Source: Chiloscyllium plagiosum
Taxonomy: Eukaryota
Direction of reading: 5' to 3'
Assembly: GCF_004010195.1 (NCBI RefSeq)
Contig: NC_057756.1
Location: 5,220,348-5,276,862, forward strand
Length of the DNA: 56,515 nucleotides
Shown here piece by piece: positions 10,897 through 51,895 of the stretch (its first letter is position 1; each line of letters begins with the position of its first letter). The notes beneath the pieces were generated by a model. That model saw nothing but the letters and a program-made list of their open reading frames with translations, made no database searches and was not told where the DNA came from. Both the position numbers and the translations under genes were made by a program.

Positions 10897-11650
10897 AGGG
10901 GGGCATGTGGTGGTCAGGGAGGCAGGAGTGGGGGCATCTGGTTGGCAGGGAGACAGGAGTGGGGGGGTATCTGGTTGTCAGGGAGACAGGAATGGGGGGG
11001 TATCTGGTTGTCAGGGAGACAGGTATGGGGAGTATCTGGTTGTCAGGGAGGCAGGTATGGGGGGTGTCTGCTTGTTAGGGAGACCGGTATGTAGGTTTCT
11101 GGTTGTCAGGGAGATTGAGGTGGCCGTATCTGGTTGTCATGGGGGACCATGATGGGGGTCTAGTTGTCAGGAGGAGTGGGATCAGGCTATATCATTGTCA
11201 CGGACATCTGTAGGGGGGCATCTGGTTGTCAGGGAGACTGGGATGGAGGGTAACTGGTTGTTTGAGATACCATGATGGGTATTCTGGTTGCAGGGAGACC
11301 ATGATGAGTTCTGTGGTTGTCAGGGACACTAGGATGGGGGTATCAGGTTGTGTGGGGCACTATGAAGGGGTTTCTGGTAGTAAGGGAAATCATGATGGTG
11401 TTTTAGGTTGTCAGGGAGACTGAGATGGGGGTATCTAGTTTTCAGGAGAAAGTGAGGTCTGCAGATGCTGGAGATCAGAGCTGAAAATGTGTTGCTGGAA
11501 AAGTGCAGCAGGTCAGGCAGCATCCAGGGAACAGGAGAATCGACGTTACGGGCATAAGCCCTTCTTCTAGTTTCTAGTTTTCAGGCAGACTGGGATAAGT
11601 TCTGGTTGTCAGGATGTGGGAATCTGATTGTCAGGGAGACTGGGGTTGAG
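10897..11650. repeat. Degenerate ~30-bp G-rich tandem repeat
   Basis: Recurrent gtatctggttgtcagggagac...gggg unit. Confidence 0.85.
11444..11572 (-). mobile_element. Short Penelope family B terminal-repeat insertion with 13-bp TSD
   Basis: TSD tctagttttcagg at 11434-11446 and 11573-11585. Truncated inside the hammerhead core. Confidence 0.85.
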
Positions 11651-11659
11651 GTTCTGTTT

Positions 11660-14600
11660 GCTATACATTGCCTGGTTGTGGGGTACAGTTTCGGGGTGCT
11701 TTAGGCACTGTGCCTGGGTGTGGGGTACAGTTTTGAGATATTGTAGGGACTGTGCCTGGGTGTTGGGTACAGTTTCGGGATACTGTAGTCACTGTGCCTG
11801 GGTATGGGGTACAGTTTCGGAAGACTGTAGGCACTGTGCCTGGGTGTGGGGTACAGCTTTGGGATACTGTAGTCACTGTGCCTGGGTGTGGAGTACATTT
11901 TCGGGATAATGTAGGGACTGTGCCTCAGTGTGGGGTACAGTTTTGGGATGCTGTAGGCAGTGTTCCTGGGTGTGGGGTACAGTTTCGGGATGCTGGAGGC
12001 ACTGTGCCTGGGTGTGGGGTACAGTTTCGGGATGCTGTAGGCATTGTGCCTGGGTGTGTGATACAGTTTCAGGATACTGTAGGCACTGTGCGTGGGTGTG
12101 TGATACAGTTTCAGGATACTGTAGGCACTGTGCCTGGGTGTGTGATACAGTTTCAGGATACTGCAGGCACTGTGCCTGGATGTGTGATACAGTTTCAGGA
12201 TACTGTAGGGACAGTGCCTGGGTGTGAGGTACTGTTTCGGGATACTGCAGGCACTGTGCCTGGGTGTGTGATACAGTTTCAGGATACTGTAGGCACTGTG
12301 GAGGAGAAAGTGAGGACTGCAGATGCTGGAGATCAGAGCTGAAAATATGTTGCTGGAAACGCGCAGCAGGTCAGGCAGCATCCAAGGAACAGGAGAATCG
12401 ACGTTTCGGGCATAGGCCCTTCTTCAGGAATCAGGCCTCATTCCTGAAGAAGGGCTTATGCCTGAAACGTCGATTCTCCTGTTCCTTGGATGCTGCCTGA
12501 CCTGCTGCGCTTTTCCAGCAACACATTTTCAGCACTGTAGTCACTATGCCTGGGTGTGGGGTATAGTTTCGGGATACTGTAGGGACTGTGCATGCGTGTG
12601 GGGTACAGTTTCGGGATACTGTAGGCTCTGTGCCTGTGTTTCAGGTTCAGTTTCAGATTACTGCAGTGACTGTGCCCGGGTGTGGGTACAGTTTCGGGAT
12701 ACTGTAGGCACTGTGCCTGGGTGTGGGGTACAGTTTCAGGATACTGTAGGCACTGTGCCTGGGTGTGGGGTACAGTTTCGGGATACTGTAGGCAATGTGT
12801 CTGAGTGTGGGGTAAACTATCGAGATACTGTATGCACTGTGCCTGGGTGTGGGGTACTGTTTCGGGATATTGTAGGGATAGTGCCTGGGTGTGTGGTACA
12901 GTTTCGGGATACTGTAGTCACTGTGCCTGGGTGTGGGGTACTGTTTCGGGTTACTATAGGGAATGTGCCTGAGTGTGTGTACAGTTTCGGAATACTGTAG
13001 GCTCTGTGCCTGTGTTTCAGGTACAGTTTCAGGTTACTGTAGTGACTGTGCCTGGGTGTGGGGTACAGTTTCGGGGTACTGTAGGGACTGTGCCTGAGAG
13101 TGGGGTGCTGTTTCGGGATACTGTAGGCTGAGTGTGGGGTACAGTTTCAGGATTCTGTAGGCACTGTGCCTGGGTGTGGGGTACAGTTTCAGGATTCTGT
13201 AGACACTGTGCCTGGGTGTGTGGTACAGTTTCAGGATGCTGTCAGGACTGTGCCTGGGTGTGGGGTAAAGTTTCGGGATACTGTAGGCACTGTGCCTGAG
13301 TGTGGGGTACAGTTTCGGGATACTGTATGCACTGTGTCTGGGTGTGGGGTACAGTTTCAGGATGCTGTTGGGACTGTGCCTGGGTGGGGTACAGTTTCAG
13401 GATACTGTAGGCACTGTGCCTGGGTGTGGGGTACAGTTTCGGGATACTGTAGGCTCTGTGTCTGGGTGTGGGGTACAGTTTCAGGATGCTGTAGGCACTG
13501 TGCCTGAGTGTGGAATACAGCTTCGGGATACTGTAGGCGCTGTGCCTGGGTGTTGGTTACATATTCGGGATACTGTAGGGACTATGCCTAGGTGTGGGGT
13601 ACAGTCTCGGGATACTACAAGCACTGTGCCTAAGTGTGGGGTACAGTTTCGGGATGCTGTAGGGACTGTGCCTGGGTGTTGGGTACAGTTTCGGGATACT
13701 GTAGGGACTGTGTCTGGGTGTGGGGTACAGTTTTGGGATGCTGTAGGGACTGTGCCTGGGTGTGGGGTACAGTTTCGGGATACTGTAGGGACTGTGTCTG
13801 GGTGTGGGGTACAGTTTTGGGATGCTGTAGGCAATGTGCTTGAGTGTGGAATACAGCTTCGGGATACTGTAGGCGCTGTGCCTGGGTGTTGGTTACATAT
13901 TCGGGATACTGTAGGGACTATGCCTAGGTGTGGGGTACAGTCTCGGGATACTACAAGCACTGTGCCTAAGTGTGGGGTACAGTTTCGGGATGCTGTAGGG
14001 ACTTACAGTTTCGGATACTGTAGGGACTGTGTCTGGGTGTGGGGTACAGTTTTGGGATGCTGTAGGGACTGTGCCTGGGTGTGGGGTACAGTTTCGGGAT
14101 ACTGTAGGGACTGTGTCTGGGTGTGGGGTACAGTTTTGGGATGCTGTAGGCACTGTGCCTGGGTGTGGGGTACAGTTTCGGGATACTGTAGGGACTGTGC
14201 CCGGGTGTGGGTACAGTTTCGGGATACTGTAGGCACTGTGCCTGGGTGTGTGGTACAGTTTCGGGATACTGTAGGGACTGTGCCCGGGTGTGGGTACAGT
14301 TTCGGGATACTGTAGGCACTGTGCCTGGGTGTGTGGTACAGTTTCGGGATGCTGTATGCACTGTGCCTGGGTGTGGGGTACAGTTTCGGGATACTGTAGG
14401 CACTGTGCCTGGGTGTGGGGTACAGTTTCGGGATACTGTGGGCACTGTGCCTGGGTGTGGGGTACAGTTTCGTGATACTGTAGGGAAAGTGCCTGGGTGT
14501 GGGGTACAGTTTCGTGATACTGTAGGGAAAGTGCCTGGGTGTGGGGTACAGTTTCAGGATACTGTAGGGAAAGTGCCTGGGTGTGGGGTAAAGTATCGAG

Positions 14601-17594: not shown

Positions 17595-18340
17595 AGAATC
17601 CCAACAGTGTGGAAACAGGCCATTTGGCCCAACAAGCGCACACCGCCCCTCTGAAGGGTAACCAACCCAGACCCATTCCCCCAAGGACTGCTACTCTACA
17701 TTTACCCCTGACTAATGCATCTAACCTCCACATCCCTGGGCACGATGGGACAATTTAGCACGGCCAATCCACCCTAACCTGCACATCCCTGGGCGCTATG
17801 GGACAATTTAGCATGGCCAATCCACCCTAACCTGCACATCCCTGGGCGCTATGGGACAATTTTGCATGGCCAATCCACCCTAACCTGCACATCCCTGGAC
17901 AGTATGGGACAATTTAGCATGGCCAATCCACCCTAACCTACACATCCCTGGACACTATGGGATCATTTAGCATGGCCAATCCACCCTAACCTGCACATCC
18001 CTGGACACTATGGGATCATTTAGCATGGCCAAGCCACCCTAACCTGCACATCCCTGGACACTATGGGACAATTTAGCATGGCCAATCCACCCTAACCTAC
18101 ACATCGCTGGGCACAATGGAACAATTTAGCACGGCCAAGGCACCCTAACCTGCACATCCCTGGGCACAATGGAACAATTTAGCATGGCCAATCCACCCTA
18201 ACCTACACATGTTTGGTCTGTGGGAAGAAACCAGGGCACCCGGAGGAAACCCACGCAGATATGGGGTGAATGTGCAAACTCCACACACAGTCACTCCAAA
18301 GCTGGAATCGGTCCCGGGTCCCTGGCGCTGGGAGGCAGCG
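17595..18340 (-). mobile_element. HE1-type SINE with ~9 internal 53-bp repeats
   Basis: Tail at 17595-17720, array at ~17720-18210, core and head at 18210-18340. Confidence 0.88.
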
Positions 18341-18885: not shown

Positions 18886-19374
18886 CTGGGGTGGGGGGGA
18901 AAGGAAATCAATCTGTCAGCTTCAGCGAGAGCAGGGAGCGGCACGTCACTGATCCGCAATCCCCCCCCCGCCCTCTCCCCAGCCTGAACGTCTTCGTCCC
19001 CTCTCCCGCACAACCCTGTCCCCCCACCATCCAAACCCAGGGAGCACAGCAAGCTCCCGCAGGACTGCAGAAACGATACAACGTGGACGTACTGGGGTCG
19101 CTCGGCCCATCTCCTCCGTGCCGGCCCCAGACACCCTTCCTAATCTCCACCCTGGCAGTGCATTAAAACCCTGGGTACTTGTAAACAAAGTGCCTCCAGC
19201 ACTTAGCTCAGGCAGTGAATTCCAGGCACCCGTCATCCTCAGCGTGAAAATGGAACTTTATCCTTGTGTCCCCTTGAAGTCTGTCCACAGCTTCCTTTGA
19301 ATCCATGAGCCCTGGACGCTCTGTGCCAAGGGAAACAGGTTCACACCCCCGTCTCACTCTATCACTGCTCTGTC

Positions 19375-19562
19375 AGGAGAAAGTGAGGTCTGCAGATGCT
19401 GGAGATCAGAGCTGAAAATGTGTTGCTGGAACAGTGCAGCAGGTCAGGCAGCATCCAGGGAACAGGAGGGCTGAAGAAGGGCTTATGCCCGAAACGTCGA
19501 TTCTCCTGTTCCCTGGATGTTGCCTGACCTGCTGCGCTGTTCCAGCAACACATTTTCAGCTC
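19375..19562. mobile_element. Fold-back Penelope family B insert with 13-bp TSD
   Basis: TSD ctgctctgtcagg at 19365-19377 and 19562-19574. Core CTGAAGA-A-GGGC-TTAT-GCCC-GAAACGTC at 19471-19498. Confidence 0.9.
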
Positions 19563-19759
19563 TGCTCTGTCAGGCTCAGCAAGGCAGCGAGAGATGGCCA
19601 TCTGTACTGCTCCTGTTGCCAGACATGATCAGCGCCCCCCCCCACCTTTGTCTCACTGACCTCAGGGCCCCGTACAGCAGCACCGTCCACCTCCCCCAAG
19701 CCCCTTCCCTGCACTGCGTGGGTCAGCCCAGAGCGCAGCAGGGTTACCGTTGGTACAAG

Positions 19760-20369: not shown

Positions 20370-21940
20370 ATCACTTCTGGTGTTTATTACAAAAGGACTG
20401 GATTATAAAAAATGAAGAAGTGCTGTTACAATTATATAAGGCACTGGCGAGACCACACCGAGAGTATTGTGCCCAGCTCTGGTCCCCTTACTTGAGGAAG
20501 GATGTGGTGGCACTGGAGGTGCTCCAGAGGAGATACACCAGATTGATCCCAGGGATGAAAAGGCTGTGGTCCAAGGAGCAGTTGCACAACTTGGGCTTGT
20601 ACTCGCTGGAGTTTGGGGGCGACATGGTGGCTCAGTGCACTGCCGCCTCCCAGCGCCAGGGACCCGGGTTCAATCCCACCCTTGGGCGACCATCTGTGTG
20701 GACTTTGCATATTCTCACCGTAACTGCGTGGGTTTCCTCCGAGTGCTCCGGTTTCCACCCACAGTCCAAAGGTGTGCAGGTTAGGCTGGATTGGCCGTGC
20801 CAAATTGCCCCATAGTGCCCAGGGATGTGCAGGTTAGGGTGGATTGGCCGTGCTATATTGTCCCATAGTGCCCAGGGATGTGCAGGTTAGGGTGGATTGG
20901 CCGTGCCAAATTGTCCCATAGTGCCCAGGGATGTGCAGGTTAGGGTGGATTGGACGTGCCAAATTGTCCCATAGTGCCCAGGGATGTGTAGGTTAGGGTG
21001 GATTGGCCATGCTAAATTGTCCCATCGTGCCCAGGACTGTGTAGGTTAGGGTGGGTTGGCCATGCTAAATTGTCCCATCGTGCCCAGGACTGTGTAGGTT
21101 AGGGTGGATTGGCCATGCTAAATTGTCCCATAGTGCTCAGGGATGTGCAGGTTAGGGTGGATTGGCCGTGCTAAATTGTCCCATAATGCCTAGGGACGTG
21201 CAGGTTAGGGTGGATTGGCCTTGCTAAATTGTCCCATAGTGTCCAGGGAATGTGCAGGTTAGGGTGGATTGGCCATGCTAAATTGTCCCATAGTGCCCAG
21301 GGATGTGTAGGTTAGGGTGGATTGGCCATGCTAAATTGTCCCACAATGCCCAGAGATGAGCAGGTTAGGGTGGATTGGCCGTGCTAAATTGTCCCATAGT
21401 GTCCAGGGATGTGTAGGTTAGGGTGGATTGGTCATGCTAAATTGTCCCATAGTGCCCAGGGATGTGCAGATTAGGTACCTCAATCGGGGGAAATATAGGT
21501 TATTCGGGGAATGGGTCTGGGTGGGTTACTCTTCGGAGGGTCTGTGTGTACTTGTGAGGCTGAAGAGCCTGTTTCCACACTATAGGGAATCTGTTCCATT
21601 GTATTCTCGAGTGAGGGGGGACCTGACTGAGGTATTTCAAATGGCGAAGGGGATTGATGAGGTGGATGTTGAACGGATGCTCCCTTTTGTGGGATAGTCT
21701 TGAACAAGAGGTCACAGATAATGAAGTTAGTTTCAAAACTGAGGCAAAGAGAAACTGCTTCCCTCGGAGAGTTGTGAATCTGCAGAATCAAACAGCAAGA
21801 AAGGAACAGGTCTGTTTCTGATGGAAAGAGAGATAAAGGGCAATGGGGAGCAGGCAGGAGACCCGAGTTGAGATCGGGACAGCGTTAAATGGCGGAGCGG
21901 GCTAGAAGGGTTGAACTGCCTGCTCCCTAATTCCTGTGTA
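20370..21940 (+). mobile_element. CR1 LINE 3' fragment split by an HE1-type SINE (20615-21590) with ~13 internal 53-bp repeats
   Basis: LLQLYKALARPHREYCAQLWSPYLRKD before the SINE and RGDLTEVFQMAKGID after it. Array at ~20771-21475. Confidence 0.9.
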
Positions 21941-22310
21941 AACACAACAGAAGGCTTCAGCTCTCCCACAGACCAGGAGGAGGAGGAGATCATGCTGGAA
22001 AAGAAGGCAGTGAATTTCGAGTGTGCGTTCCAGGCCGTTGTCTGCAGCATTGTGCCTTGGAACACAGAAGGGGAGCGGATTTCATGGGAAATGACAAATG
22101 ACATCGCTTTGCAAACAATGGGCGCAACCGAGTTTCAGGGGGAGGCGGTGAGATGGAAGGCAAAAGCTGCAGTGAACACGGTTATCAGGAAACCGCAGGG
22201 CAGGAGCGATTCAAGAGTTTTAGCGCAGAAGCAACGGAGAGGAAAAACCGAACAAACGCCACTTAAAGTTAAGCAATAGTTGTCACTGCAGGAGCCTGGG
22301 TAAAACACCA

Positions 22311-22500
22311 AGAGCTGAAAATGTGTTGCTGGAAAAGCGCAGCAGGTCAGGCAGCATCCAAGGAGCAGGAGAATCGACGTTTCGGGCATAAGCCCTTCGT
22401 CGATTCTCCTGCTCCTTCGATGCTGCCTGACCTGCTGCGCTTTTCCAGCAACACATTTTCAGCTCTGATCTCCAGCATCTGCAGCCCTCACTTTCTCCTC
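22311..22500. mobile_element. Fold-back Penelope family B insert with 14-bp TSD
   Basis: 69-bp arms at 22311-22379 and 22398-22466 with one mismatch. TSD taaaacaccaagag at 22301-22314 and 22507-22520. Confidence 0.9.
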
Positions 22501-23399
22501 GAAGAATAAAACACCAAGAGGCAAAGCGAGAAACCAGCAGCCTGAAAGAACGATATGAAGCGACAAAGGGACTCAAAGACACCAGATGAAATCTCTCAAA
22601 GACCAGCAAACCGAACGGCAGAGGTAGGAGTGAGGAGAGAGGTGTTAGTCTTGATTAGTGCCGCCCCTCTGCCTTACACAGTCGCAGGTGATAATGGAAA
22701 GGAAGCCAGAGACTTTCCAAGTGAGGTTCTCCAAGGGAGAGTCGTTTTGGCCCCGAAACACTATCTCTGTTCCTCTCTCTCTGCACAGATGCTTCTGGGA
22801 CTGCTGACTTTCTCCAGGGCAGTCAGCTTTAATTCCAGAGCTGAGCACCAGCAGCATTTTGAGTTTATGTCAATGTTATACGAGGGCTCAAGATCTGTTT
22901 CATGAGCACAATAGGACAAAGAAATCAAACTAAAGTAAGTAGAGGAATTTAGTATGTTTGGAAATAAAAAACGGCCATGGAAGAAAGTCATGGGAGTGAA
23001 GACAGACAGCTCTCCAGGATGTGATGGTTTACACCCCAGAGTGTTGAGGAGTTGATGTACAAACTGCAGGAAGTTCGGATGTGAGTTTTCCAAAACTCTT
23101 GACTCTGCTGAGGAATGATGCCATTGGATTGAGAAAATTCAAAATGTCACTGCATGGGTTAAGGTGGTCAAGAGAGAGAAACCAGTTGACTGCGGTCTGT
23201 AGGCATCCCTGACTGGGCCGGCATTGGTCGCTCATTCCCCAACTGGTCTCCAGGCTGGGAACCAGACAGACTCTAACCTCACACCTGTCTGAGTGGAGAT
23301 GTCACCTTTCCATCTGCTGACAAAACTTCAAGTTATCTTGGGAATGTGACTTGAAAGAAGTTCTGGGATGTACATGTTAATAAATTGAAACCTGAATCC

Positions 23400-24325
23400 A
23401 TAGAGTCATAGAGATGTACAGCACGGAAACAGACCCTTCGGTCCAGCCCGTCCATGCTGACCAGATATCCCAACCCAATCTAGTCCCACCTGCCAGCACC
23501 CGGCCCATATCCATCCAAACCCTTCCTATTCATATNNNNNNNNNNNNNNNNNNNNNNNNNNNNNNNNNNNNNNNNNNNNNNNNNNNNNNNNNNNNNNNNN
23601 NNNNNNNNNNNNNNNNNNNNNNNNNNNNNNNNNNNNNNNNNNNNNNNNNNNNNNNNNNNNNNNNNNNNNNNNNNNNNNNNNNNNNNNNNNNNNNNNNNNN
23701 NNNNNNNNNNNNNNNNNNNNNNNNNNNNNNNNNNNNNNNNNNNNNNNNNNNNNNNNNNNNNNNNNNNNNNNNNNNNNNNNNNNNNNNNNNNNNNNNNNNN
23801 NNNNNNNNNNNNNNNNNNNNNNNNNNNNNNNNNNNNNNNNNNNNNNACCTGCGACTCTACTTTCAAGGAGCTATGAACCTGCACTCCAAGGTCTCTTTGT
23901 TGAGCAACACGCCCTAGGACCTTACCATTAAGTGTATAAGTCCTGCTAAGATTTGCTTTCCCAAAATGCAGCACCTCGCATTTATCTGAATTAAACTCCA
24001 TCTGCCACTTCTCAGCCCATTGGCACAACTGATCAAGATCCTGTTGTAATATGAGGTAACCCTCTTTGCTGTCCAGTACACCTCCAATTTTGGTGTCATC
24101 TGCAAACTTACTAACTGTACCTCTTATGCTCACATCCAAATAATTTATATAAATGACAAAACGTAGAGGACCCACCACCGATCGTTGTGGCACTCCACTG
24201 GTCACAGGCCTCCAGTCTGAAAAACAACCCTACACCACCACCCTCTGTCTTCTACCTTTGAGCCAGTTCTGTATCCAAATGGCTAGTACTCCCTGTATTC
24301 CATGAGATCTAACCTTGTTAAGCAG
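23400..24325 (-). mobile_element. CR1-clade LINE ORF2 3' part (spans a gap)
   Basis: TSGVPQRSVVGPLRFVIYINYLD, SKFADDTKIGG and WQMEFNSDKCEVLHFG. Confidence 0.92.
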
Positions 24326-24492
24326 TGTATGACACTGTGATCTTTTACTATAAATTCTGTATCCTATGATCCTGCCCCACTAGTTACCTGACGAAGGAAC
24401 AGTGCTCTGAAGGCTTGCACTTCCAAATAAACCTGGTGTTGTGTGATTTCTAACTTTGTCCACCCCAGTCCAACACTGGCACCTCCGCATCA
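24326..24492 (+). mobile_element. Penelope family A terminal-repeat fragment, decayed hammerhead
   Basis: Similar to 820-960. CTGACGA at 24388, with the GAAA box mutated to GAAG. Confidence 0.7.
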
Positions 24493-24827
24493 GAGGGCGG
24501 TGGTGAGTCAGCAAGGAAAGGGAGGAGTTGATGGATACTGTAGGTAAAGGCAGAATGAATAGACGGACTGGGTGAAGGCTGTTGAAGAGACAGAGGCGAA
24601 GATGCAGAGCGTAGGAGGGTTAGAAGGATTTGCAGAATGGCGCTGAGTCCTCGAAGGGATTGAGAGGCGAGCTGAAATAATTCTGTGTTGGCCCAGAGCA
24701 GGCAGAATATTCCCAGTCTTACATGGCGAGTGGGCTTGACAATGGGAATGGGAGGAACAGCGACTTATTGATCTGTAGAAATTAACGTAGAAATGTAGGA
24801 AATGGGAGTAGGCTGTTCAGCTCTTTG

Positions 24828-25090
24828 AGGAGAAAGTGAGGACTGCAGATGCTGGAGATCAGAGTTGAAGGACGCTGCCTGACCTGCTGTGCTTTCCCAG
24901 CGCCCGAGGTGCAGGAGAGTTGACGTTTCGGGACTGAGTTCATCATCAGGAATGTGGCTTGTGGGTCTTCTCAGCCCCCTTGACCCACAAGCCTCATTCC
25001 TGATGAAGGTCTTATGCCTGAAACGTCAACTTTCCTGCACCTCGGATGCTGCCTGACCTGCTGTGCTTTCCCAGCGCCACACTCTCTACT
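24828..25090. mobile_element. Rearranged fold-back Penelope family B insert
   Basis: Inverted segments, with a hammerhead core CTGATGA..GAAACGTC at 25000-25027 (+) and a decayed one at ~24926-24949 (-). Confidence 0.8.
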
Positions 25091-25875
25091 CACGTTCAGC
25101 CCTTCCTGCCTGTTCTACTGTCCAATACGATCATGGCTGATCACCCGACTCAGTCCCCTGTTCCCACGTTCTCCCTGTTGATCCCTTCAGTCCGAGGAAC
25201 TCTGTCCTATTCCTTCCTGAAACCATTCCAGTGTTTCGGCCTCGATCGCTCCCCCCCGTGGCAGAGAGTTCCAGTCTCCCCCAATCTCTGGGTGAATCTC
25301 CTCATCTCAGTTCTGAGTGGCTGACCCCGTTTCCTTAGCCTGTGACCCCCCCCCCCCCGGATCTGAACTCCCTCATCGTCAGGAACATCCTTTCCCCCAG
25401 CCTGGTCCGGTTAGAACTTCACAGGTTTCTGTGAGATCCCTCCCTCCATTTCTTCCAAACTGCCCTGAATATGGTCCGAACCGATTCAGTCTCTCTTCAT
25501 CCGTCAGTCCTGCCATCCCGGGAGTCAGTCTGGGAAACCTGTATTACACTCCCTCCCTCACCAGGACATTCCTCCTCAGAGAAGGAGACCAGGACTGTAC
25601 ACACGCTACTCCAGGGTGTGGTCTCACCAAGGCCCCCTGTATAACTGCAGCAAGAGCTCCTGCTCCTGTACTCCAAGCCTCTCACTATGAAGGCCACTCT
25701 ACCTTTCACCTTCCTCACCGCCTGCTGTCCCTGCAATGTTTACCTTCAGCGACCGGGATACGATGGCACCCAGGTCGCGTTGCACCTCCCCCTTTCACAA
25801 TATATCGTCATTCGGATCATAATCCACCTCTCTGCTTTTGCAACCAAAGTGGATAATCTCGCATCTATCTGCACT
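25091..25875 (-). mobile_element. CR1-clade LINE 3' fragment
   Basis: QQAVRKVKGRVAFIVRGLEYRSR remnant and a CR1-type tail. Confidence 0.8.
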
Positions 25876-30124: not shown

Positions 30125-30803
30125 TTCGACAGTGGGGAAACAGGCCCTTCGGCCCAAGTCGACACTGACCCTTCGAAGACTAACCCACTCAGACCCATTC
30201 CTCCTACCATATTACTCTACATTTCCCCCAACTAATGCACATCCCTCCACATCCCTGGACACTATGGGACAATTTAGCATGGCCAATCCTCCCTAACCTG
30301 CACATCCCTGGACACTATGGGACAATTTAGCATGGCAGATCCACCCTAACCTGCACATCGCTGGACACTATGGGACAATTTAGCATGGCCGATCCACCCC
30401 AACCTGTACATCCCTGAACACTATGGGACAATCTAGCATGGCCGATCCACCCTAACCTGTACATCCCTGGACACTATGGGACAATTTAGCATGGCCGATC
30501 CACCCTAACCTGCACATCCCTGGACACTATGGGACAATTTAGCATGGCCAATCCACCCTAACCTGCACATCCCTGAACACTATGGGGCAATTTAGCATGG
30601 CCAATCCACCCTAACCTGCACATCCCTGAACACTATGGGGCAATTTAGCATGGCCAATCCACCCTAATCTGCACATCTTTGGATTGTGGCAGGAAACCCA
30701 CGCAGACACGGGGGGAATGTGCAAATTCCACTCAGACAGTCACCTCGAGGCTGGATTCGAACCCAGGTCCCTACTGCTAACCACTGAGCCCCCGTGCCAC
30801 CCT
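30125..30803 (-). mobile_element. HE1-type SINE with ~8 internal 53-bp repeats
   Basis: Tail, array (~30240-30680), core and tRNA-like head are all present. Confidence 0.88.
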
Positions 30804-37234: not shown

Positions 37235-37865
37235 AATCCCTATTAGGTGGAAACAGGCCCTTCGGCCCAACAAGTCTACACCAACCCTCCGAAGAATAAC
37301 CCACCCATTCCCCTACCCTATGACTCTACATTTACCCTTGGCCAAAGCACACATCCCTGGGCACTATGGGACAAATTAGCATGGCCAATCCTCCCTAACC
37401 TGCACATCCCTGGGCACTATGGGACAATTTAGCATGGCCAATCCTCCCTAACCTGCACATCCCGGGACACTATGGGACAATTTAGCATGGCCAATCCACC
37501 CTAACCTGCACATCCCTGGGCACTATGGGACAATTTAGCATGGCCAATCCACCCTAACCTGCACATCCTGGGACACTATGGGACAATTTAGCATGGCCAA
37601 TCCTCCCTAACCTGCACATCCCGGGACACTATGGGACAATTTAGCATGGCCAATCCTCCCTAACCTGCACATCCCAGGACACTATGGGACAATTTAGCAT
37701 TGCCAATCCTCCCTAACCTGCACATCCTAGGACACTATGGGACAATTTAGCATGGCCAATCCACCCTAACCTGCACATCCTTGGGCACTATGGGACAATT
37801 TAGCATTGCCAATCCACCCTAACCTGCACATCCTGGGACACTTATGGGACAATTTCCCATGGCCA
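37235..37865 (-). mobile_element. Head-less HE1-type SINE with ~10 internal 53-bp repeats
   Basis: SINE tail at 37235-37345, followed by the array. Confidence 0.85.
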
Positions 37866-38689
37866 ACCATGGTATCCAGCCCCTAGATCCCGAGAATGCA
37901 GCCTCTTGTCAATTTTCCCCTAGGCAATGAAATTCTAAACCGTTGAGGACTGGCAGAACACTCAGCCCACTGTTCTGGTGATAGCTGGTCGGAGGACTTG
38001 TTAGGTTTGCTCCCACACTCAGCTGGTGCTGCACACAAGTTTAACTCCAAACCTCCTTGGCTCACAGACTCTGCGATGCTATTAATGAAGCCGAGGGTAA
38101 GGTTTGCAGAGGTTATTTGGAAACAGAAATGGAGGCGTAGTTGAGTTTCCTGCTCAGCCCTGAATAAAGACAGAGGAGGGAGTCTCACAAGGGCAGCTGT
38201 CGCTTTCCCTGACTCAATATGGCTCCAGGTCAGAGGTTAGGTCCTTATTCCAAGCAATTTGGGGTCAGAGGTACCACTAACCCTGGGATGGGAGAAGGGG
38301 AAGTTCCCACAGATTACAGACCATGGCCTCACATTACCCCCCACCCCCCTCTATCTCTGTAATTTCCCATAGCCCCTGCGAGGAACCAATTTAAACTGTC
38401 CCAAGGCAATTCACGGGAGGGATAGTGGAACATAAATTGGACCTCGGGCCAAGTGAACAGCGGCCTTCGCCTTGGGATGTGACTCTGCTCCGAGAGGGAC
38501 ATTCTAAGGATTGACTTAACAGGGAAAAGAGGAATGGGAAGGTTGAGGGAGGCAGCTGCAGAGCTCAGGACCCCAGGCATCTGATGGCACGCCCAACAAT
38601 CGTCCAATGAAGGAAATCCAGGTCAATTTTTGTCCAACGAGTGCTCCAGTGAATAGCCTTAAGAGACACAGATCTGAGGGTTATAGGAT

Positions 38690-39515: not shown

Positions 39516-39562
39516 GAAGAGGCCATGGAGGTGTGTTAATGACGAGGTTGGACTGCACTGAC

Positions 39563-40075
39563 CTGGAAACCCAGGCAGCGCCCATAGAAGCAGCCCTTGT
39601 GCATGGAATTGGACTCATGCAGGAAGTCCTCTGAGAGTCCCTTCTCCTCACCAAAGAACAGGTCACCGTGCTTGTTGGCGGTCAGCAGCCTCTGGGCAAA
39701 GTAGACAAGGGCACGGAGCTGGCAGAGGGCAGAGCAGTAGGCCTCGATCTCCATGCAGTTGTGGTTGGTCCTGAAGAAGATGCTGCGCCGGTTGGCGGAG
39801 ATGTAGCGTGACTTGTGGATGATGTGCAGGATGCAGGAGCGCACCACTTTAATGAGGCTGCGGTAGCCGTTGGCCGGAGTCCGCTCGTCAAAGTCAAAGA
39901 TGGGGAAGATCCCGGTGAAGCTCTGCACCAGCGGCTGGAGGTGGCGGCCGTGCTCCTGGATCTGAGAGAAGGCAGTGACAAAGCGGCGGGCTGTCTCCGT
40001 GGGGTTGAGCCTGAAGAAGCGGATGTTGTCCTCGGTGACGGAGTGCAGCAGGAGGAACATGGTCCTTACATCCAT
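39563..40075 (-). CDS. LIPE: Hormone-sensitive lipase, first coding exon (171 codons, MDVRTMF...HKGCFYGRCLGFQ)
   Basis: Translation shows HSL N-terminal motifs (FDFDERTPANGYRSL, SRYISANRRSIFFR, EIEAYCSALCQLRAL, KGCFYGRCLGFQ). ATG at 40075-40073 in ccATGG context. Upstream polypyrimidine tract with TAG/CAG acceptor at 40101-40096. Donor CAG|GTCAGT at 39563/39562, phase 0. Confidence 0.97.
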
Positions 40076-40153
40076 GGATGGAGTGGTCACCGTGGCTGCT
40101 AGACAGAGGAAAAGGAGGGCACGGTGATTACAAATCCACTGACCCACTCAACA

Positions 40154-42677: not shown

Positions 42678-42799
42678 TATATTGAACTCCTTCTTCAAAT
42701 TATTCTACATTTTGGCATTAACACAGTCCTCATTTTTGAACACAGTCCTCATTGATCCAGTCTCGCTTCCTACGTCAGTCCTGCCATCCCAGGAAACAG

Positions 42800-42999
42800 C
42801 GTCGAGAGTGTGGTGCTGGAAAAGCACAGTATCCGAGAAGCAGCAGAATCGACGTTTTCGGGCAGAAGCCCTTCACCAGGGAGGGGTCAGGGTCGAGGGA
42901 GGGCCATGACAAGGGAGTGCTGCCTGACCTGCTGTGCTTTTCCAGCACCGCACTCTCGACTCTGATCGCCAGCATCTGCAGTCCTCACTTTCTCCTAAT
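42800..42999. mobile_element. Fold-back Penelope family B insert with 16-bp TSD
   Basis: TSD ccatcccaggaaacag at 42784-42799 and 43000-43015. Inverted ends gtcgagagtg.ggtgctggaaaagcacag and ctgtgcttttccagcaccgcactctcgac. Confidence 0.85.
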
Positions 43000-43479
43000 C
43001 CATCCCAGGAAACAGTCTGGTAAACTTTCCCTGTACTTCCTCCACAGCCAGAACATCTTCCTCAGATAAGGAGGCCAAAACTGTGCGCACAAAACCCCAG
43101 GCGTGGCCTCACCACTGGCCCCGTCCAATTGCAGCAAGATGTCTCTGTCCTTGGATCCTCTCGCTATGAAGGACAACATACCCTTTTGCCTCGCTGCACC
43201 TTTCCCAATATATTGCCAATATATTGCTTTGGCTCCCAGAGTGGATAAGCTCACATTTATCCACATCTGCCATGCATTTGCCCACTCACTCAGCGTGTCC
43301 AAAGCACACTGCAGCACCTCTGCATCCTCCTCACAGTTCACCCTCCTACCCAACGTTTTGTGTCATGACTCCTCAGATACTGAAGCAGTCCATGTCCAAA
43401 TGCAGCGAGAGCTGGCCAATATCCTGGATCGGGCTGACAAGTGGCAAGTAACATTCACATCACAAAAGGGCCAGGCAGT

Positions 43480-43892
43480 GACAGCATGGTGGCTCAGTGG
43501 TTAGCACTGCTGCCTCATAGCGCCAGGGACCTGGGTTCGATTCCAGTCTCGGGTGACTGTCTGTGTGGAGTTTGCACATTCTCCCAGTGTCTGCTTGGGT
43601 TACCTCTGGTTTCCTCCCACAATCGAAAGATGTGCAGGTTAGGGTGTATTGGCCATGCTAAATTGTCCCATAGTGCCCAGGGATGTGCAGGTTAGGGTGG
43701 ATTGGCCATGCTAAATTGTCCCATAGTGCCCAGGGATGTGCAGGTTAGGGTGGATTGGCTAGGCTAAATTGTTCAGGGATTAGATGCATTAGTCAGGGGT
43801 AAATGTAGTGTAATAGGGGAGGGTAATGGGTCTGGGTGGGTACTCTGTGGAGCGTTAGTGTGGCCTAATTCCACACTCTAGGAATTCTATGA
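43480..43892 (+). mobile_element. HE1-type SINE with 2-3 internal 53-bp units, nested in a CR1 fragment (~43360-44510)
   Basis: A-box tggctcagtggttagc, B-box ggttcgattcc, V-domain core and tail. Confidence 0.9.
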
Positions 43893-45819: not shown

Positions 45820-46011
45820 GCTACGTCAGAATCCCACTAATTGACTACAGTTCAGCCTTCAACACTATTATCCCCCTGAGACTGATTACTAAACTTGGTG
45901 ATCTCGGACTAAGCCCCATTCTCTGCAACTGGATCCTCAGTTTCCTGACCCACAGGCCACAATCAGCGAAGATTGGGCACAATATTTCACCCTCACTAAC
46001 ACTCAACACTG
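45820..46011 (+). mobile_element. Rex1/Babar-type LINE RT fragment
   Basis: Translates as [47 protein letters not shown]. Second copy at ~55665-55775. Confidence 0.8.
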
Positions 46012-46927
46012 NNNNNNNNNNNNNNNNNNNNNNNNNNNNNNNNNNNNNNNNNNNNNNNNNNNNNNNNNNNNNNNNNNNNNNNNNNNNNNNNNNNNNNNNN
46101 NNNNNNNNNNNNNNNNNNNNNNNNNNNNNNNNNNNNNNNNNNNNNNNNNNNNNNNNNNNNNNNNNNNNNNNNNNNNNNNNNNNNNNNNNNNNNNNNNNNN
46201 NNNNNNNNNNNNNNNNNNNNNNNNNNNNNNNNNNNNNNNNNNNNNNNNNNNNNNNNNNNNNNNNNNNNNNNNNNNNNNNNNNNNNNNNNNNNNNNNNNNN
46301 NNNNNNNNNNNNNNNNNNNNNNNNNNNNNNNNNNNNNNNNNNNNNNNNNNNNNNNNNNNNNNNNNNNNNNNNNNNNNNNNNNNNNNNNNNNNNNNNNNNN
46401 NNNNNNNNNNNNNNNNNNNNNNNNNNNNNNNNNNNNNNNNNNNNNNNNNNNNNNNNNNNNNNNNNNNNNNNNNNNNNNNNNNNNNNNNNNNNNNNNNNNN
46501 NNNNNNNNNNNTGTATAACACTGGGGTACAGTACTGGTGGGCACGGGTCTGTTACTGTGTAACACTGGGGTACAGTACAGGTGGGGACGGGTCTGTCACT
46601 GTGTAACACTGGGGTACAGTATAGGTGGGGACAGGTCTGTCACTGTAACAGGGGTACAGTGCTGGTGGGGGCAGGTCTGTCACTGTACAACACTGGGGTA
46701 CAGTACTGGTGGGGGCAGGTCTGTCCCTGTGTAACACTGGGGTACAGTACTGGTGGGGGCAGGTCTGTCCCTGTGTAACACTGGGGTACAGTACTGGTGG
46801 GGACAGGTCTGTCCCTGTGTAACACTGGGGTACAGCACTGGTGGGGGCAGTTCTGTCACTGTGTAACACTGGGGTACAGTACTGGTGGGGACAGGTCTGT
46901 CACTGTATAACACTGGGGTACAGTACC

Positions 46928-47932
46928 TACACCAGCAACAATCCCAGCACACACAAACGAAGCTGTATCAGAACACTATTCCAACCAGCCATCCACACTG
47001 CAGCACAGACGAACTTCGGAAAACAGAGGAGAACCACCTATAGGACATATTCAAGAAGAACGGATACTCAAAAAAAATACAGTGCGCAGATTCCTCAAGA
47101 ACAAACCACTACAAACAGACCAGACACAGCCAGAAACCTTAACCACCTTACCATACATCAAAGAAGTTTCAGAAATGACAGCCAGACTACTAAGCCCCCT
47201 CAGAATCCGAGTCGCACACAAACCCACCAACACTCTCAAACAAAAACTAACAAACTTAAAAGACCCAGTACATCCCATGGACAACACCAACGTCATCGAC
47301 AAAAATTCCATGCAAGAACTGCCACAAACACTACGTAGGACAAACAGGAAGAAAGTTAGCCAGCAGGATACACGAACACCAGCTAGCCACAAAAAGACAT
47401 GACCCTCTCTCACCCAGTACATCCCATGGACAAAACCAACGTCATCGACAAAATTCCATGCAAGAACTGCCACAAACACTCCGTAGGACAAACAGGAAGA
47501 AAGTTAGCCAGCAGGATACTCGAACACCAGCCAGCCACAAAAAGACACGACCCTCTCTCCCTCGTAGCCCTCCACCCGCATGAAAAAAACCACCATTTTG
47601 ACTGGGACAACACATCTATCCTGGGACAGGCTAAGCAAAGGCACGCCAGAGAATTCCTCGAGGCCTGGCACTCCAACCACAACACCATAAACAAACACCT
47701 AGATCTAGATACCAGCTCTCAACCCCTCAGAAAACGAACAGGAAATGACATCACCACAAACCCCAGGAACCCCATCCAGGACAAACATATAAACAGAAAG
47801 CAGGGGAGAACAGCTTCGCTTCACTTGGAGGTCGCCTCTGATGATGTTACCCAGCCAGGTAATGAAACGTCTGGGCATCAATCCTACAGCTCAGCGAGCA
47901 AAGCTCAACCTGAGCGACAAACCTTCCAAAAA
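46928..47932 (+). mobile_element. Penelope-like retroelement (family C), 5'-truncated: RT C-terminus, GIY-YIG and hammerhead
   Basis: HKRSCIRTLF, TLPYIKEVSEMTARLL, NVIDKIPCKNCHKHxVGQTGRKLASRIxEH and HHFDWDNTSIL...REFLEAWHS. Hammerhead core at 47838-47871. Confidence 0.92.
47838..47871 (+). ncRNA. Minimal hammerhead ribozyme motif (Penelope family C)
   Basis: CTGATGA-T-GTTACC-CAGCCA-GGTAAT-GAAA-CGTC. Stem I pairing is weak in this copy. Confidence 0.7.
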
Positions 47933-48749
47933 AGGTCTGTCACTATATGTCACTGGGATACAGTACCGTCACTGTATGACACAGGGGTACAGTACTGGTG
48001 GGGGTAGGTCTGTCACTGAGTAACACTGGGGTACAGTACAGATGGGGACATGTCTGTCACTGTATAACACTGGGGCACAGTACTTGTGGGAACAGGTCTG
48101 TCACTGTGTAACTCTGGGGCACAGTACTGGTGGGGACAGGTCTGTCACTGTATAACACTGGGGTACAGTACAGGTGGGGACAGGTCTGTCACTGTGTAAC
48201 ACTGGGGTACAGTACAGGTGGGGACAGGTCTGTCTCTGTGTAACATTGGGATACACAGTGCCTGGTTTGTGTCACCTTGTTTAATTCTGCTTTAGTCTAT
48301 CTAAGATTTATCTGCCTGTCTTCCCGCTCCCTTTTGTCCTCGGTGTCACTCTCTTCCCCCTTGTCACTGTAACCTCTCCTGTTTTCTTGTTTGTGCACCA
48401 CCCTCCTCCTCCTCTTGCCTCTGTGCTCTCCCTCTCTGTCCCCTCTGCCTCGGCCTTCCCTCGCCTTCTGTTCCCCCCTCTGTGTTGCTGTTGTGGCTCC
48501 GGGGGTGAGGAGACCTCCTGCTGTTTCCCACATGCCGTCCTCCTGTGGCTGACAAATTGGTCTTTCTCCGTAGTGAACAACACGTCGAGGAAACCCAACA
48601 CAAGAGAGAAACTTCTCCAATCTCCCAGTGAGCAATCTGGTGTCAGTGTGACCACCACACAGAATCCTTGTGGAGACAGAGCCCCACCTTCCCATTGAGA
48701 ATGCCCTTCATCGTGTTGTGTGGCATTTATCACTGTGCTAAATAGGACA

Positions 48750-50160
48750 GATGTGGAACAGACCTTATCTCAATACCGGGTGTACATGCGGTGCTGGGTG
48801 CCAACAGCAGCAGAAGTGTACTCCAGCACAATCTGTAACCTCATGGCCTGGCGTATCCCCCACTCAACCATTCCCATCTCGCCAGGGGATCAACGCAGGG
48901 TCAATGCAGAGTGCAGGAGGGCATGCCAGAGCAGCAACTGGGCACACCTGAAGTTCAGGTGCCAACCTGGTGAAGCTGCCAGACAGCAGAAGCAGCAAGT
49001 GATGGGCAGAGCTGAGTGATTCCCCCAACTAACGGATCCGATCGAAGCTCTGCAGTCCTGCCATATCCAGTCAGTAATGGTGGGGGGGGGAGTGGAGAAT
49101 TCCACAGCTGGCTGGAGGAGGAGGGTCCACAGACATCCCCATCCTCCCTGAAGGAAGAGCCCAGCCCACCGGGGAGAAAGATAAGGCTGAAGCTCCCGCA
49201 GCAATCTTCAGCCCAAAGTGTCGAGTGGATGATCCATCTCGGCCTCCTCCAGTGGGCCCCAGCATCACAGAGACCAGGCTTCACATTCACTCCACGTGAT
49301 ATCGAGAAACGGGTGGAGATACTGGACACTGGGAAGGCTACGGGCCCTGACAACACCCCGGCTGTAGTACTGAAGACCTGGGCTCCTGAACTTGCTGCCC
49401 TGGCCAAGCTGTTCCAGTTCAGTTCCAACCCTGGCATCCAACCGGCAGAGTGGAAAATTGCCCGGGTATGTCGTGTACATGAAAAGCAGGGCAAATCCGA
49501 CCCGGCCAATTACCCCCCCACCATCAGTCTACACTCGGTCATCAGTGAAGTGATGGAAGGTGACATTAACAGTGCTATCAAACAGCACCCGCTCAGCAAT
49601 AACCTGCTCAGTGACGCCCAGTTTGGGGTCCCCCAGGGTCACTCAGCTCCTGACCTCATTACAGCCTTGGCTCAAACATGGACAAAAGAGCGGAATTCCA
49701 GAGGGGAGGGGAGAGGGACAGCCCTTGGCATCAAGGCTGCATTCGGCCGAGAGTGGCATCACAGAGCCCTGGCCAAACTGGGATCAATGGGTATCAGGGG
49801 CACACTCTCTGCTGGTTGGAGTTATACCTGACGCACAGAGGGAGGTGGTCGGTGGAGGGTCAGTCACCTCAGCTTCAGGCCATCTCTGCAGGAGCTCCTC
49901 AGGGGAGTGTCCCAGGCCCAACCATCTCCAACTGCTTCATCAAAGACCTTCCCTCCATCATAAGGTCAGAGGTGGGGATGTTGGCTGAGGATTGCCCAGC
50001 GTTCAGCCCCATTCACGATGACTCAGGCACTGAAGCAGTCTGGGTCCAAATGCAACAAGATCTGGGCACTCTCCAGGCTTGGGCTGACAGGTGGCAGGTG
50101 GCAGTCTCACCACACAAAGGCCAGGCTGTGACTGTCACCAACAAGACACAATCTATACCT
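48750..50160 (+). mobile_element. CR1-clade LINE (second family), degenerate ORF2/RT
   Basis: LDTGKATGPDNTPAVVLKTWAPELA, NNLLSDAQFG, ALGIKAAFGREWH and GAPQGSVPGPTIS. An inverted 3' fragment follows at ~50400-50775. Confidence 0.9.
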
Positions 50161-51649
50161 GCTGCCCTTGTCCTTGTCGATGGGCACGTGTATTGCAGTT
50201 CCTTCAGTGTTGCTCAGTCCAAATCCTGGGATTCCCTCCCCAATAGCATTGGGGGTGTACCTCCCACTCGAGGTCTGTCGTGGTTGAGGAAGGCAGCTCC
50301 CCACCACCTCCTTCAGGGGCCACTCATGACTGGCAGCAAATGCTGGGCCCAGCCAGTGATGCCAATGTCCAACAGCGGCATTTCAAGAAAGTGGCATGGG
50401 TTTGCAAGGAGCAGTGGTCAATTTCTGCCAAGTGTTTTGTAGATGGGTACCCACTGCTGCTACTGAGCGTCGGTGTCGGAGGGAGGGGATGTTTGTGGGT
50501 GTGAGGCCAATCAAGCGGGGGCCTGCTTTGTCCCTGGATGGTGTTGAGCTTCTCGAGTGTTGATGAAGCTGCCCCCATCCAGGGGCAAGTGGGGAGTATT
50601 CCCTCACCCTCCTGACTTGTGCCTTGTCGGTGGTGAGACAGGAGGTGAGTGACTCGTTGCCGGATTCCCAGCCTTTGACCTGCTCTTGTAGCTGCTGGGG
50701 TGAGTCCAGTCTCTGATCAATGGTAGCGCCCAGGATGTTGTTGGTGGAGGATTCAGTGATGGTAACAGCATTGGGGTGACAGACCGGGAGGGCTGTTGGG
50801 TCTGCAGGGGTTGACAGAGACATGGAGGTTGTGGAAGGATTTGAAAGCCAGTTTGAAAATCTTAAAATGAGGTGCTTGCTTAAGTCAGAATCAATGCCAA
50901 GAGGACTGAGCGAGGCTGGTGGTGGTGGACAGGATTTAGTGGGACTTTGTGTGGACACAGCAGAGGTTTTAATGAGTTTGATGACTTTTCTCTCTGTAAA
51001 CATTCTCCCTCTGTGTCTCTCCAACTCCCTCTCCCCTTCTCTGTCTCTCATGCATCCTTGATCCAAGTCTCTCACCCTCATTTGCAGTCACACGTGCCCA
51101 CTGTCACACAGACACACGTGCTCACTCCTTGTCGCCACAACACACGCGTAATCACAGCGACACCGGCACTCTCATCTCCACATCCTTTCTTCACTTTCAC
51201 CATCCCTTTCTCTCACTCAGTCACAGACATGCTGTCAGGCTGTCTCTGGTGGAGGGTCGTGTGTGCCCTCGGTCCCTCACACACAGTGCCACATGTGCAG
51301 GCTATCACTCCCATACAGGGCAGTCACGGGTGCAAGTTGTTCACGTTGCAGGATTGATCAGCCAGAGGCTGAGACTCTTGAATTCCGAGTCACTAGTCAG
51401 CTCTCTCCAAGGCAATCAGCGTTCAAGTCGTGTCGTACATCTGAAATAAAAAGCCCCAGCTTGTGCTGGTGACTGTCAGCCTTGGCAAATAGTCTGGTAA
51501 ACCCTTCCAGTTAGCTCACATCCTTCAGAGCAAAATGTGTGTGAGTTGGCCATGTGTGTGTCACGTCACTGTGCTCGGTGGCGGAGCTGTGTTGAGCAAG
51601 GTGGGTGGCTGTCACCATCTCAGTGTGTAGCGGGGTGAATGGTAACTCT

Positions 51650-51855
51650 GTTGAAACTTTATTGCTGGAACAGCACAGCAGGTCAGGCAGCATCCAGGGA
51701 ACAGGAGATTCGACGTTTCGGGCACAGGCCCGAAGAAGGGCCTGTGCCCGAAACGTCGAATCTCCTGTTCCCTGGATGCTGCCTGACCTGCTGTGCTGTT
51801 CCAGCAATAAAGTTTCAACTTTGATCTCCAGCATCTGCAGACCTCACTTTCTCCC
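51650..51855. mobile_element. Fold-back Penelope family B insert: perfect 82-bp inverted repeat with 14-bp TSD
   Basis: Arms at 51650-51731 and 51738-51819, loop gaagaa, 36-nt one-sided tail. TSD tgaatggtaactct at 51636-51649 and 51856-51869. Confidence 0.93.
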
Positions 51856-51895
51856 TGAATGGTAACTCTACCGCCTGGGCTCCCGTGGGCTGTTT

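Follow-up and report, generated by a model that had tools for sequence, protein, structure and literature searches.

The 56,515-nucleotide stretch of Chiloscyllium plagiosum DNA analysed here (contig NC_057756.1; hereafter the window) contains seven short inserts that, very probably, are truncated insertions of a Penelope-like element (PLE), each made anew. Granted this, it is likely that they were built by a two-primer route. The reading as a whole, which on balance we favour, is that these are dead-on-arrival, two-ended insertions made from two primed cDNAs by an EN+, linker-bearing (Neptune/Nematis) PLE. The inserts belong to an ordinary class, the anatomy of which has already been published for PLEs, and the family may well be catalogued (Dfam, Repbase). 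A literature search found no description of these shark inserts, and PMC12602865 has nothing on structure.

Seven inserts share one sequence

The original prediction described at least seven inserts of about 130-260 bp sharing one sequence, most of them inverted repeats, with a tail of about 35 nt on one side only and five clean target-site duplications (TSDs) of 13-16 bp. All of this holds. The common sequence is present at 11444, 12301, 19375, 22311, 24828, 42800 and 51650 in inserts of 120 to about 272 bp. Six of the seven are head-to-head inverted pairs (perfect over 82 nt in 51650, one mismatch over 69 nt in 22311), 11444 being a single arm; the tail measures 33-37 nt and sits on one arm alone; and the TSDs of 11444, 19375, 22311, 42800 and 51650 are exact (Table 1). 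The label "young" suits 51650 and 22311 but not 24828, where the arms differ at 11 of 70 positions.

An nhmmer census of the window returned 21 hits, 14 at the seven inserts, three at two longer copies (1157 and 8795-9617) and four weak ones to more distant families. The window thus has nine loci, and read depth (about 34,500, the mean of 13 low bins being 1.24) points to ends numbering in the tens of thousands. The insert unit forms no tandem array among the 39 TRF rows for the window, and a pattern scan for further copies gave 0 matches in metagenome contigs, viral contigs and prokaryote genomes.

Table 1. Positions of the inserts and the two longer copies in the window. Negative numbers are positions in the element, counted back from its tip; lengths are those between TSDs.
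Feature	Position	Strand	Remarks
11444, single-arm 5'-truncated pLTR copy with tail	11447-11566	-	5' end -124; CUGA lost, GAAA mutated
11444, TSD	11434-11446, 11573-11585		13 bp; 6-nt partial repeat precedes right TSD; length 120-126 bp
12301, tailed arm	12301-12435	-	5' end -134; hammerhead core intact at 12427
12301, tail-less arm	12436-12533	+	-134 to -37; hammerhead core at 12444; junction symmetric without spacer
12301, probable TSD	12286-12300, 12534-12548		15 bp, 13/15 matching (2 mismatches); within 42-bp minisatellite; length 233 bp; inverted arms 102 nt, 94%
19375, tailed arm	19375-19468	-	5' end -94; without hammerhead
19375, tail-less arm	19471-19561	+	-126 to -33/-36; intact core, but stem I without its native 5' strand
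19375, TSD	19365-19377, 19562-19574		13 bp; junction with 2-nt filler; length 184 bp; inverted arms 66 nt, 95%
22311, tail-less arm	22311-22397	-	-121 to -34/-38; CUGA lost
22311, tailed arm	22398-22506	+	5' end -102, plus 6-7 nt filler
22311, TSD	22301-22314, 22507-22520		14 bp; empty site in organisms B and C; length 192 bp; inverted arms 69 nt, 1 mismatch
24828, insert, older subtype	24828-25093		tailed arm on -, internal inversion 24870-24904; tail-less arm on +, about 24969-25091; both 5' ends beyond -134
24828, hammerhead core	25000		stem II damaged
24828, TSD candidate	24815-24821, 25094-25100		7 bp; length about 272 bp; inverted arms 70 nt, 84%
42800, insert, older subtype	42800-42999		tail-less arm on -, 5' end upstream of -126, 12-nt deletion, core mutated
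42800, tailed arm	42918-42996	+	5' end -79
42800, TSD	42784-42799, 43000-43015		16 bp; junction about 35 nt of UTR-like or filler sequence; length 200 bp; inverted arms 33 nt, 94%
51650, tail-less arm	51650-51731	-	-118 to -37
51650, tailed arm	51732-51855	+	5' end -124; CUGA not kept; arms 81/81 identical; own subtype
51650, TSD	51636-51649, 51856-51869		14 bp; length 206 bp; inverted arms 82 nt, 100%
1157, longer single-arm copy, older subtype	1157-1582	-	GIY-YIG C-terminal part 1407-1559, 3' UTR, pLTR, tail
1157, TSD candidate	at 1150 and 1583		7 bp
8795, longer decayed two-armed copy	8795-9617		tailed arm on -, 8795 to about 9020
8795, second part	9057-9453	+	GIY-YIG remnant, then UTR and tail-less pLTR on +

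Target sites

When tandem arrays were left out, duplications of at least 13 bp arose by chance in 5 of 2000 random window pairs; with arrays included, the figure was 7.8% of 1500 pairs. Note that 11444 lies at the end of a 31-bp minisatellite and 12301 inside a 42-bp one, so that their TSDs are weaker evidence. For the 7-bp candidates (24828, 1157), which extend the range of TSD lengths to 7-16 bp, the chance expectation is 328 in 2000. In four of the five clean TSDs (11444, 19375, 22311, 42800), three to four bases also match the element end.

Empty sites in relatives had been suggested as a check, and 22311 provides one: contigs of two related species (organisms B and C, two of two relatives' runs) skip exactly 22301-22506, that is, the insert plus one TSD copy, with flanks that differ by about 6%. 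Insert 22311 was therefore acquired after the split from these species, and the family can be called recently active on that scale only. As a separate observation, in run X15 a contig covering 24524-24850 enters insert 24828 by just 23 letters, and no listed X15 contig bridges 22311.

Fixed 3' ends and variable junctions

Both arms represent the 3' end of the element, directed outward, and their 3' ends are fixed at two sites: tailed arms stop at the tip (about -2 to +1), tail-less arms at about -33 to -37. The 5' ends vary (Table 1); these breakpoints were taken from the alignment, automatic calls being shifted by private variants (12301L, 51650L, 42800L) or overshooting (22311L, 51650R). Our evidence base for the fold-backs is six junctions, all unique (0 of 15 pairs share one). 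In the raw reads, 31,917 leave the 22311 junction and continue upstream, compared with at most 37 for any listed joint back into the sense arm, although the joint table holds the best 15 of 4685 rows and rare shared junctions may exist. Each arm of 19375, 22311 and 42800 (probably also of 24828 and 8795) has sequence absent from its partner, so neither can simply have been copied from the other; the tailed arms of 12301 and 51650, by contrast, include everything in their tail-less partners.

Among the younger subtypes, all nine arms start between -134 and -94, inside the roughly 40-nt hammerhead, and none extends to the UTR, a pattern that random truncation does not explain. In contigs of three runs the loose-end consensus breaks up some 13 letters beyond 22398, at -134; the raw-read consensus follows a single upstream sequence for 30 letters (agreement 0.62).

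A probable linker-bearing parent

The seven inserts derive from about four source subtypes, and the two arms of one insert are always of the same subtype (81/81, 65/66, 56/59, 93/98 and 29/31 sites). That the same sequence terminates GIY-YIG fragments at 1157-1580 and 8795-9610, as originally proposed, is confirmed by tblastn with P0001, the best-matching shark protein for these coding remnants (1407-1559, 68% identity, E 5e-14; 9057-9453, about 37% identity, E 3e-7). The end directly behind these remnants is, however, an older subtype, 68-81% identical to the younger arms, and it is for this subtype that the link is established. Pfam found 0 families in seven decayed retroelement frames of the window; the basis for assigning GIY-YIG is the tblastn match to P0001. 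The copy at 8795-9617 has the layout of the short inserts with a coding remnant added (arms 82% alike over 103 nt). P0001 itself combines RT, a CX4CX2C linker and GIY-YIG; its Pfam matches (GIY-YIG, E 2.5e-4; RVT_1, E 0.008) lie below cut-offs, many homologues carry PF00078/PF01541, and the linker is present in 95 of the 101 listed homologues that show a GIY-YIG-like motif. The predicted zebra shark protein P0007 extends from the EN domain across the UTR into this hammerhead-type sequence. Within the window there is no full-length pLTR-ORF-pLTR partial-tandem parent with this end. A frame that starts with an ATG at -80 stays open as far as the tip; a simple motif search of 120 homologous proteins saw it in 0 of them, and we do not claim this ATG as the ORF start.

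The view that these are retrotransposed Penelope ends (a minimal-hammerhead pLTR plus a one-sided tail) rather than DNA MITEs is supported; the parent, classified by its linker, appears to be of the Neptune/Nematis rather than the Penelope/Poseidon type.

The hammerhead is mostly broken

In the window, our own scan picked up seven hammerhead motifs whose stem II is at least 4 bp long (100 base shuffles gave 0.05 on average), and five of the eight motifs listed in the hammerhead scan are members of the insert family. No hammerhead model appears among 15 Rfam matches up to E 10, all below gathering scores; the best of these matches are miRNA models, also below cut-offs. The catalytic core is kept in 4 of 13 arms and the complete hammerhead in 12301 alone. 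A long hairpin abolishes stem II in the predicted folds of 12301, 24828 and 51650, and the MFE structure of the isolated 12301 hammerhead lacks the hammerhead fold (z 0.84). Because the two ribozymes within an insert occupy opposite strands, they cannot dimerise in one transcript. We rejected hammerhead cleavage as the cause of truncation because no arm begins at the cut, -98, the nearest 5' ends being -94 and -102. An alignment of ten ends offers a hint only of a conserved stem around the proximal start site (covariation term 0.07, single-sequence z 0.11 to -1.50).

Known systems

For canonical EN+ PLEs, PMC3846280 and PMC8557442 describe complex insertions, typically inverted 5'-truncated pLTRs with an optional 30-40 bp tail and a TSD. 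The inserts resemble them in their head-to-head inverted ends, tail at one end, variable TSD and heavy 5' truncation, and roughly in dimensions (tail 31 bp in Pen2a_Av and TSD 8-10 bp, versus 33-37 and 7-16 here). They differ in being densely packed and in having both copies cut within the pLTR, which leaves no ORF. Neptune/Nematis-type PLEs are described as having a C-terminal GIY-YIG with a CX2-5CxxC linker, typical of Nematis too (PMC8557442); P0001 has this arrangement of RT, linker and GIY-YIG, and two of seven inserts sit in minisatellites.

Metazoan PLEs carry minimal type-I hammerheads (min-HHR), according to PMC4209133, with which ours share CUGANGA, the unpaired base ahead of stem II, G10.1-C11.1, GAAA, the palindromic 15.2-16.2 and a short stem I. 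The dual min-HHRs that PMC4209133 notes in Schistosoma, 100-700 bp apart on opposite strands, have the arrangement of the inserts; stem II is 4 bp here versus 7-8 bp in S. mansoni, and most insert arms lack the core. Non-LTR retrozymes, as outlined in bioRxiv 10.64898/2026.07.22.740005, are likewise non-coding, hammerhead-bearing and PLE-derived, and present in a chondrichthyan, but they are head-to-tail tandems with a hammerhead in each unit, whereas here the pairs are inverted, no junction recurs and most of the ribozymes are broken.

How might the inserts have formed?

In the two-primer route, the GIY-YIG domain would nick both target strands some 7-16 nt apart, and each nicked 3' end would prime reverse transcription on element RNA, one at a distal and one at a proximal start site, which would yield the one-sided tail. 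Both cDNAs would halt after about 60-130 nt, mostly inside the hammerhead, and end-joining, with 0-2 nt of overlap or filler, would then link them head to head; the hammerhead would be a passenger, usually cut through. For the Anolis Poseidon element PAc, PMC11167929 reports that the tail is delimited in vitro by a pair of neighbouring RT start sites, that both target strands undergo cutting and extension, and that insertion does not require hammerhead cleavage. The two fixed 3' end sites match this pair, which we count in favour of the route. Our reading as a whole also draws on the unique junctions, the arms with sequence of their own, the shared subtype of paired arms and the TSD bases that match the element end. 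Its transfer to our family is by analogy: PAc belongs to another clade, its RT starts lie 111-118 nt into the ORF, and its AT-rich ATT target preference is, by eye, not obvious at the seven insert sites.

An unlikely but serious contender keeps the same parent and dead-end status and has the inversion arise by self-priming (fold-back of template or cDNA), with EN trimming the tail from one end during resolution. Self-priming on an antisense template and a tail from EN-mediated resolution are proposed in PMC3846280 and PMC8557442, respectively. The shared subtype of paired arms, with identity up to 100%, would follow, as would the contained arms of 12301 and 51650; the 12301 junction resembles an opened hairpin; and in three clean cases the loop lies in the tail-less arm, as expected if the trimmed strand was the first strand. 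Yet junctions offer 0-1 nt of usable self-complementarity, or carry filler (19375, 22311, 51650), and PMC11167929 attributes the tail to two start sites and shows both strands being extended. A DNA-transposon MITE with long terminal inverted repeats would also be short, non-coding, palindromic, TSD-flanked and abundant, but we consider it barely conceivable and largely refuted: the termini are asymmetric, TSD length is not fixed, every copy has a different centre, some copies have a single arm, and an RT/GIY-YIG element ends in this sequence. Long inverted repeats are prone to deletion, so that longer inverted insertions might have lost their centres later, giving short fold-backs with variable junctions. 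The longer version at 8795-9617 and the internal rearrangements in 24828 and 42800 would fit; we nonetheless judge this highly improbable, since the youngest-looking inserts (51650, 22311) are already short and the single-arm 11444 ends in the same zone (-124) without a palindrome to drive deletion.

A further alternative is a short non-autonomous transcript, consisting either of roughly the terminal 134 nt of the pLTR or of the palindrome itself, that PLE protein mobilises in trans; whether self-propagating or as a single-arm version, it seems decidedly doubtful. The confined starts of the nine younger arms, the consensus that dissolves at -134 and the sheer abundance of the family speak for it, as do reports that pLTRs in cis suffice for mobilisation (in PMC3846280) and that non-autonomous PLE derivatives exist (in PMC8557442 and the retrozyme preprint). 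Against it, none of the 15 fold-back pairs has a junction in common, the seven inserts draw on about four source subtypes, the core survives in 4 of 13 arms, the cleavage site coincides with no 5' end, stem II is buried in three predicted folds, the paired ribozymes are on opposite strands, the raw-read consensus continues upstream, and known retrozymes are built head to tail. The self-propagating ribozyme element of the original prediction finds no support here. Somewhat less doubtful, though still improbable, is a variant for the younger subtypes only: their template may be a short non-coding pLTR-only RNA with its 5' end near -134, or the folded hammerhead may be a strong RT stop, and PLE protein would then insert such cDNAs in back-to-back pairs at sites numbering in the tens of thousands. 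If true, this would be a SINE-like PLE partner that integrates as a palindrome, or a first in vivo hammerhead footprint on the transposition cycle.

Implications

Whether the inverted ends and one-sided tail of PLEs come from two primed cDNAs or from self-priming and trimming is debated, and the inserts provide a test set: with two-ended insertions this short, each readable in full and present by the tens of thousands in one genome, junction microhomology, arm subtype mixing and breakpoint position could be counted directly. Such palindromes can be mis-annotated as MITEs or microRNA hairpins, and presence/absence sites like 22311 are usable phylogenetic markers.

Inserts are mostly inverted copies of one element end

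All seven inserts that had been predicted to share one sequence are present in the window (vertebrate DNA, 3,926 N), and six of the seven are inverted pairs, the exception being 11444, which has a single arm. Inverted arms measure 82 nt at 100% identity, 69 nt at 99%, 66 nt at 95%, 102 nt at 94%, 33 nt at 94% and 70 nt at 84%. Both arms of each fold-back are the 3' end of a Penelope-like element (PLE), facing outward. On a scale where the tip is -1, the tail starts at -36, the first base after the hammerhead cut is -98 and hammerhead C3 is -126, tailed arms reach the tip and tail-less arms stop at -33 to -37, which bears out the one-sided tail.

Clean target-site duplications (TSDs) had been proposed for five inserts. 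Exact 13-16 bp flanking repeats indeed border five of the seven, and outside tandem arrays a repeat of at least 13 bp arose in 5 of 2000 random pairs, but one of the five, 11444, lies, as does 12301, in a minisatellite, where chance flanking repeats are common. The TSD candidate of 12301 is 15 bp with two mismatches, that of 24828 only 7 bp. Four of the five clean TSDs share 3-4 bases with the element end.

Segment 21500-25400 was compared with four of 23 listed sequencing runs; all counts reported here derive from the window or from these runs. The original prediction had proposed a check for empty sites in relatives, and they exist: in one contig each of two related species (organisms B and C), 22300 is joined directly to 22507, the 206 missing bases being the 192-bp insert 22311 plus a single 14-bp repeat copy. 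Around this empty site, the flanking sequence differs at 49/753 letters in B and 79/1308 in C. This makes 22311 a genuine insertion with a TSD, one that postdates the split from both relatives. In organism A, raw read depth is ~34,500 on the left-arm bin, against an average of 1.24 across 13 low bins, corresponding to ~28,000 element ends at 90% identity or more, or ~86,000 if single-copy depth is assumed to be 0.4.

Inserts and neighbouring features, with 5' ends of arms on the scale of the element end
Feature	Position	Strand	Details
Insert	11444		Single arm, 5' end -124
Insert	12301		5' ends: tailed -134, tail-less -134 (symmetric junction); both arms keep hammerhead core
Insert	19375		5' ends: tailed -94, tail-less -126; one arm keeps core, without stem I partner
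Insert	22311		5' ends: tailed -102, tail-less -121
Insert 24828	24780-25130		5' ends: both beyond -134, with 35-bp internal inversion; one arm keeps core, stem II damaged; seems to interrupt another repeat
Insert	42800		5' ends: tailed -79, tail-less upstream of -126
Insert	51650		5' ends: tailed -124, tail-less -118
Hormone-sensitive lipase exon-bearing frame	39539-40147	-	Pfam HSL_N, E 5.7e-61
Second hammerhead-bearing end, two copies	874; 5425	+; -	5-bp stem II, different downstream sequence
Decayed RT-thumb + linker + GIY-YIG remnant	6040-7131	-	Different Neptune-type family, ~28-37% to homologue set; just upstream of 5425 hammerhead, same strand
GIY-YIG remnant, third family	46911-47960	+	Internal 148-bp duplication; own hammerhead at 47838, 6-bp stem II
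Older fold-back	35361-35530		43-nt arms, 79%; more distant relative of same end, one-sided tail
Single ends of more distant relatives	3124-3211; 29574-29700	-; -
53-bp minisatellite, six dispersed places	1-596; 17721-18210; 20773-21475; 30244-30677; 37350-37866; 43629-43772

The inserts sit in or around the hormone-sensitive lipase gene. The ends at 874 and 5425 probably belong to another Penelope-like family, and the older fold-back at 35361-35530, with its one-sided tail, means that the layout is not confined to one family. Like the 53-bp minisatellite, arrays of 42, 43/44 and 70 bp recur, which suggests that minisatellites are carried by interspersed repeats. Many fragments (23399-24500, 2699-5344, 49016-50442 and others) have reverse-transcriptase-like translations that we take to be LINE (CR1/L2-type); 23334-24512 has very high copy in reads.

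The parent element

The end had been predicted to terminate GIY-YIG fragments. Coding remnants do precede it in copies 1157 and 8795-9617, the latter two-armed and one-tailed like the short inserts, but these carry an older subtype of the end; beside the younger subtypes, we saw no ORF in the window or the four runs. The best protein match of the retroelement remnant in the window is from Chiloscyllium punctatum, which points to a shark host. The shark protein best matching the coding remnants combines an RT part with a CX4CX2C linker and GIY-YIG, and among the 101 listed homologues that have the nuclease motif, 95 carry the linker; excerpts of PMC8557442 give it as a mark of Neptune and Nematis, not Penelope/Poseidon. 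In one of 120 proteins, a zebra shark prediction, the nuclease reads on into the same hammerhead-type sequence. At 22398, 31,917 raw reads continue into upstream sequence (30-letter consensus, agreement 0.62), while the contig consensus dissolves after ~13 letters, so that some copies reach a common upstream region and numerous others may end or diverge close to -134.

This anatomy upholds the reading of the inserts as retrotransposed Penelope-like ends: an inverted, 5'-truncated copy with a one-sided 30-40 bp tail and a TSD is described as the typical PLE insertion in the available parts of PMC3846280 and PMC8557442, and the older subtype adjoins GIY-YIG remnants. Searches of the published literature turned up no paper that describes the shark inserts.

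Hammerheads and the origin of the fold-backs

The hammerhead in the element end is of the minimal type I and shows the features given in the accessible text of PMC4209133. The window contains seven of these motifs, against 0.05 in shuffles; an Rfam search of the window returned no matching hammerhead model. Only 4 of 13 arms retain an intact catalytic core, and in predicted whole-insert folds of 12301, 24828 and 51650, pairing between the arms leaves stem II with probability 0. Each insert's two ribozymes lie on opposite strands, which would make the dimer thought to be needed for cleavage impossible within one transcript. Dual minimal hammerheads on opposite strands, 100-700 bp apart, are described for Schistosoma (PMC4209133, in part); retrozymes are tandem, whereas the shark inserts are inverted pairs.

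How might such inserts form? Most simply, every nicked target end would prime one cDNA, and both cDNAs would halt early and then be joined. L1 twin priming resembles this route, although here, unlike in L1, the arms overlap in sequence. Excerpts of PMC11167929 report that a PLE protein cuts and extends both target strands, that reverse transcription begins at two internal sites bounding the tail, and that insertion works without hammerhead cleavage. In 19375, 22311 and 42800 each arm holds sequence absent from the other, which fits two templated arms. The rival, self-priming with one tail trimmed later (PMC3846280 and PMC8557442, in the parts available), fits the symmetric 12301 junction and the identity of arms: both arms of an insert always share a subtype, among about four source subtypes, and those of 51650 are identical at 81/81 positions while only 85-90% identical to other young arms. 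Self-priming sits less easily with the little complementarity at junctions, where overlap or filler is 0-2 nt (3-7 nt of filler occur at three tips). Junctions differ in all six fold-backs, and six are too few to decide between two primed cDNAs and self-priming.

No arm in the window starts at the hammerhead cleavage site, and the 5' starts of all nine younger-subtype arms fall inside the 41-nt hammerhead span. Random truncation does not account for this clustering; the inserts themselves are real, well supported and mostly ordinary.
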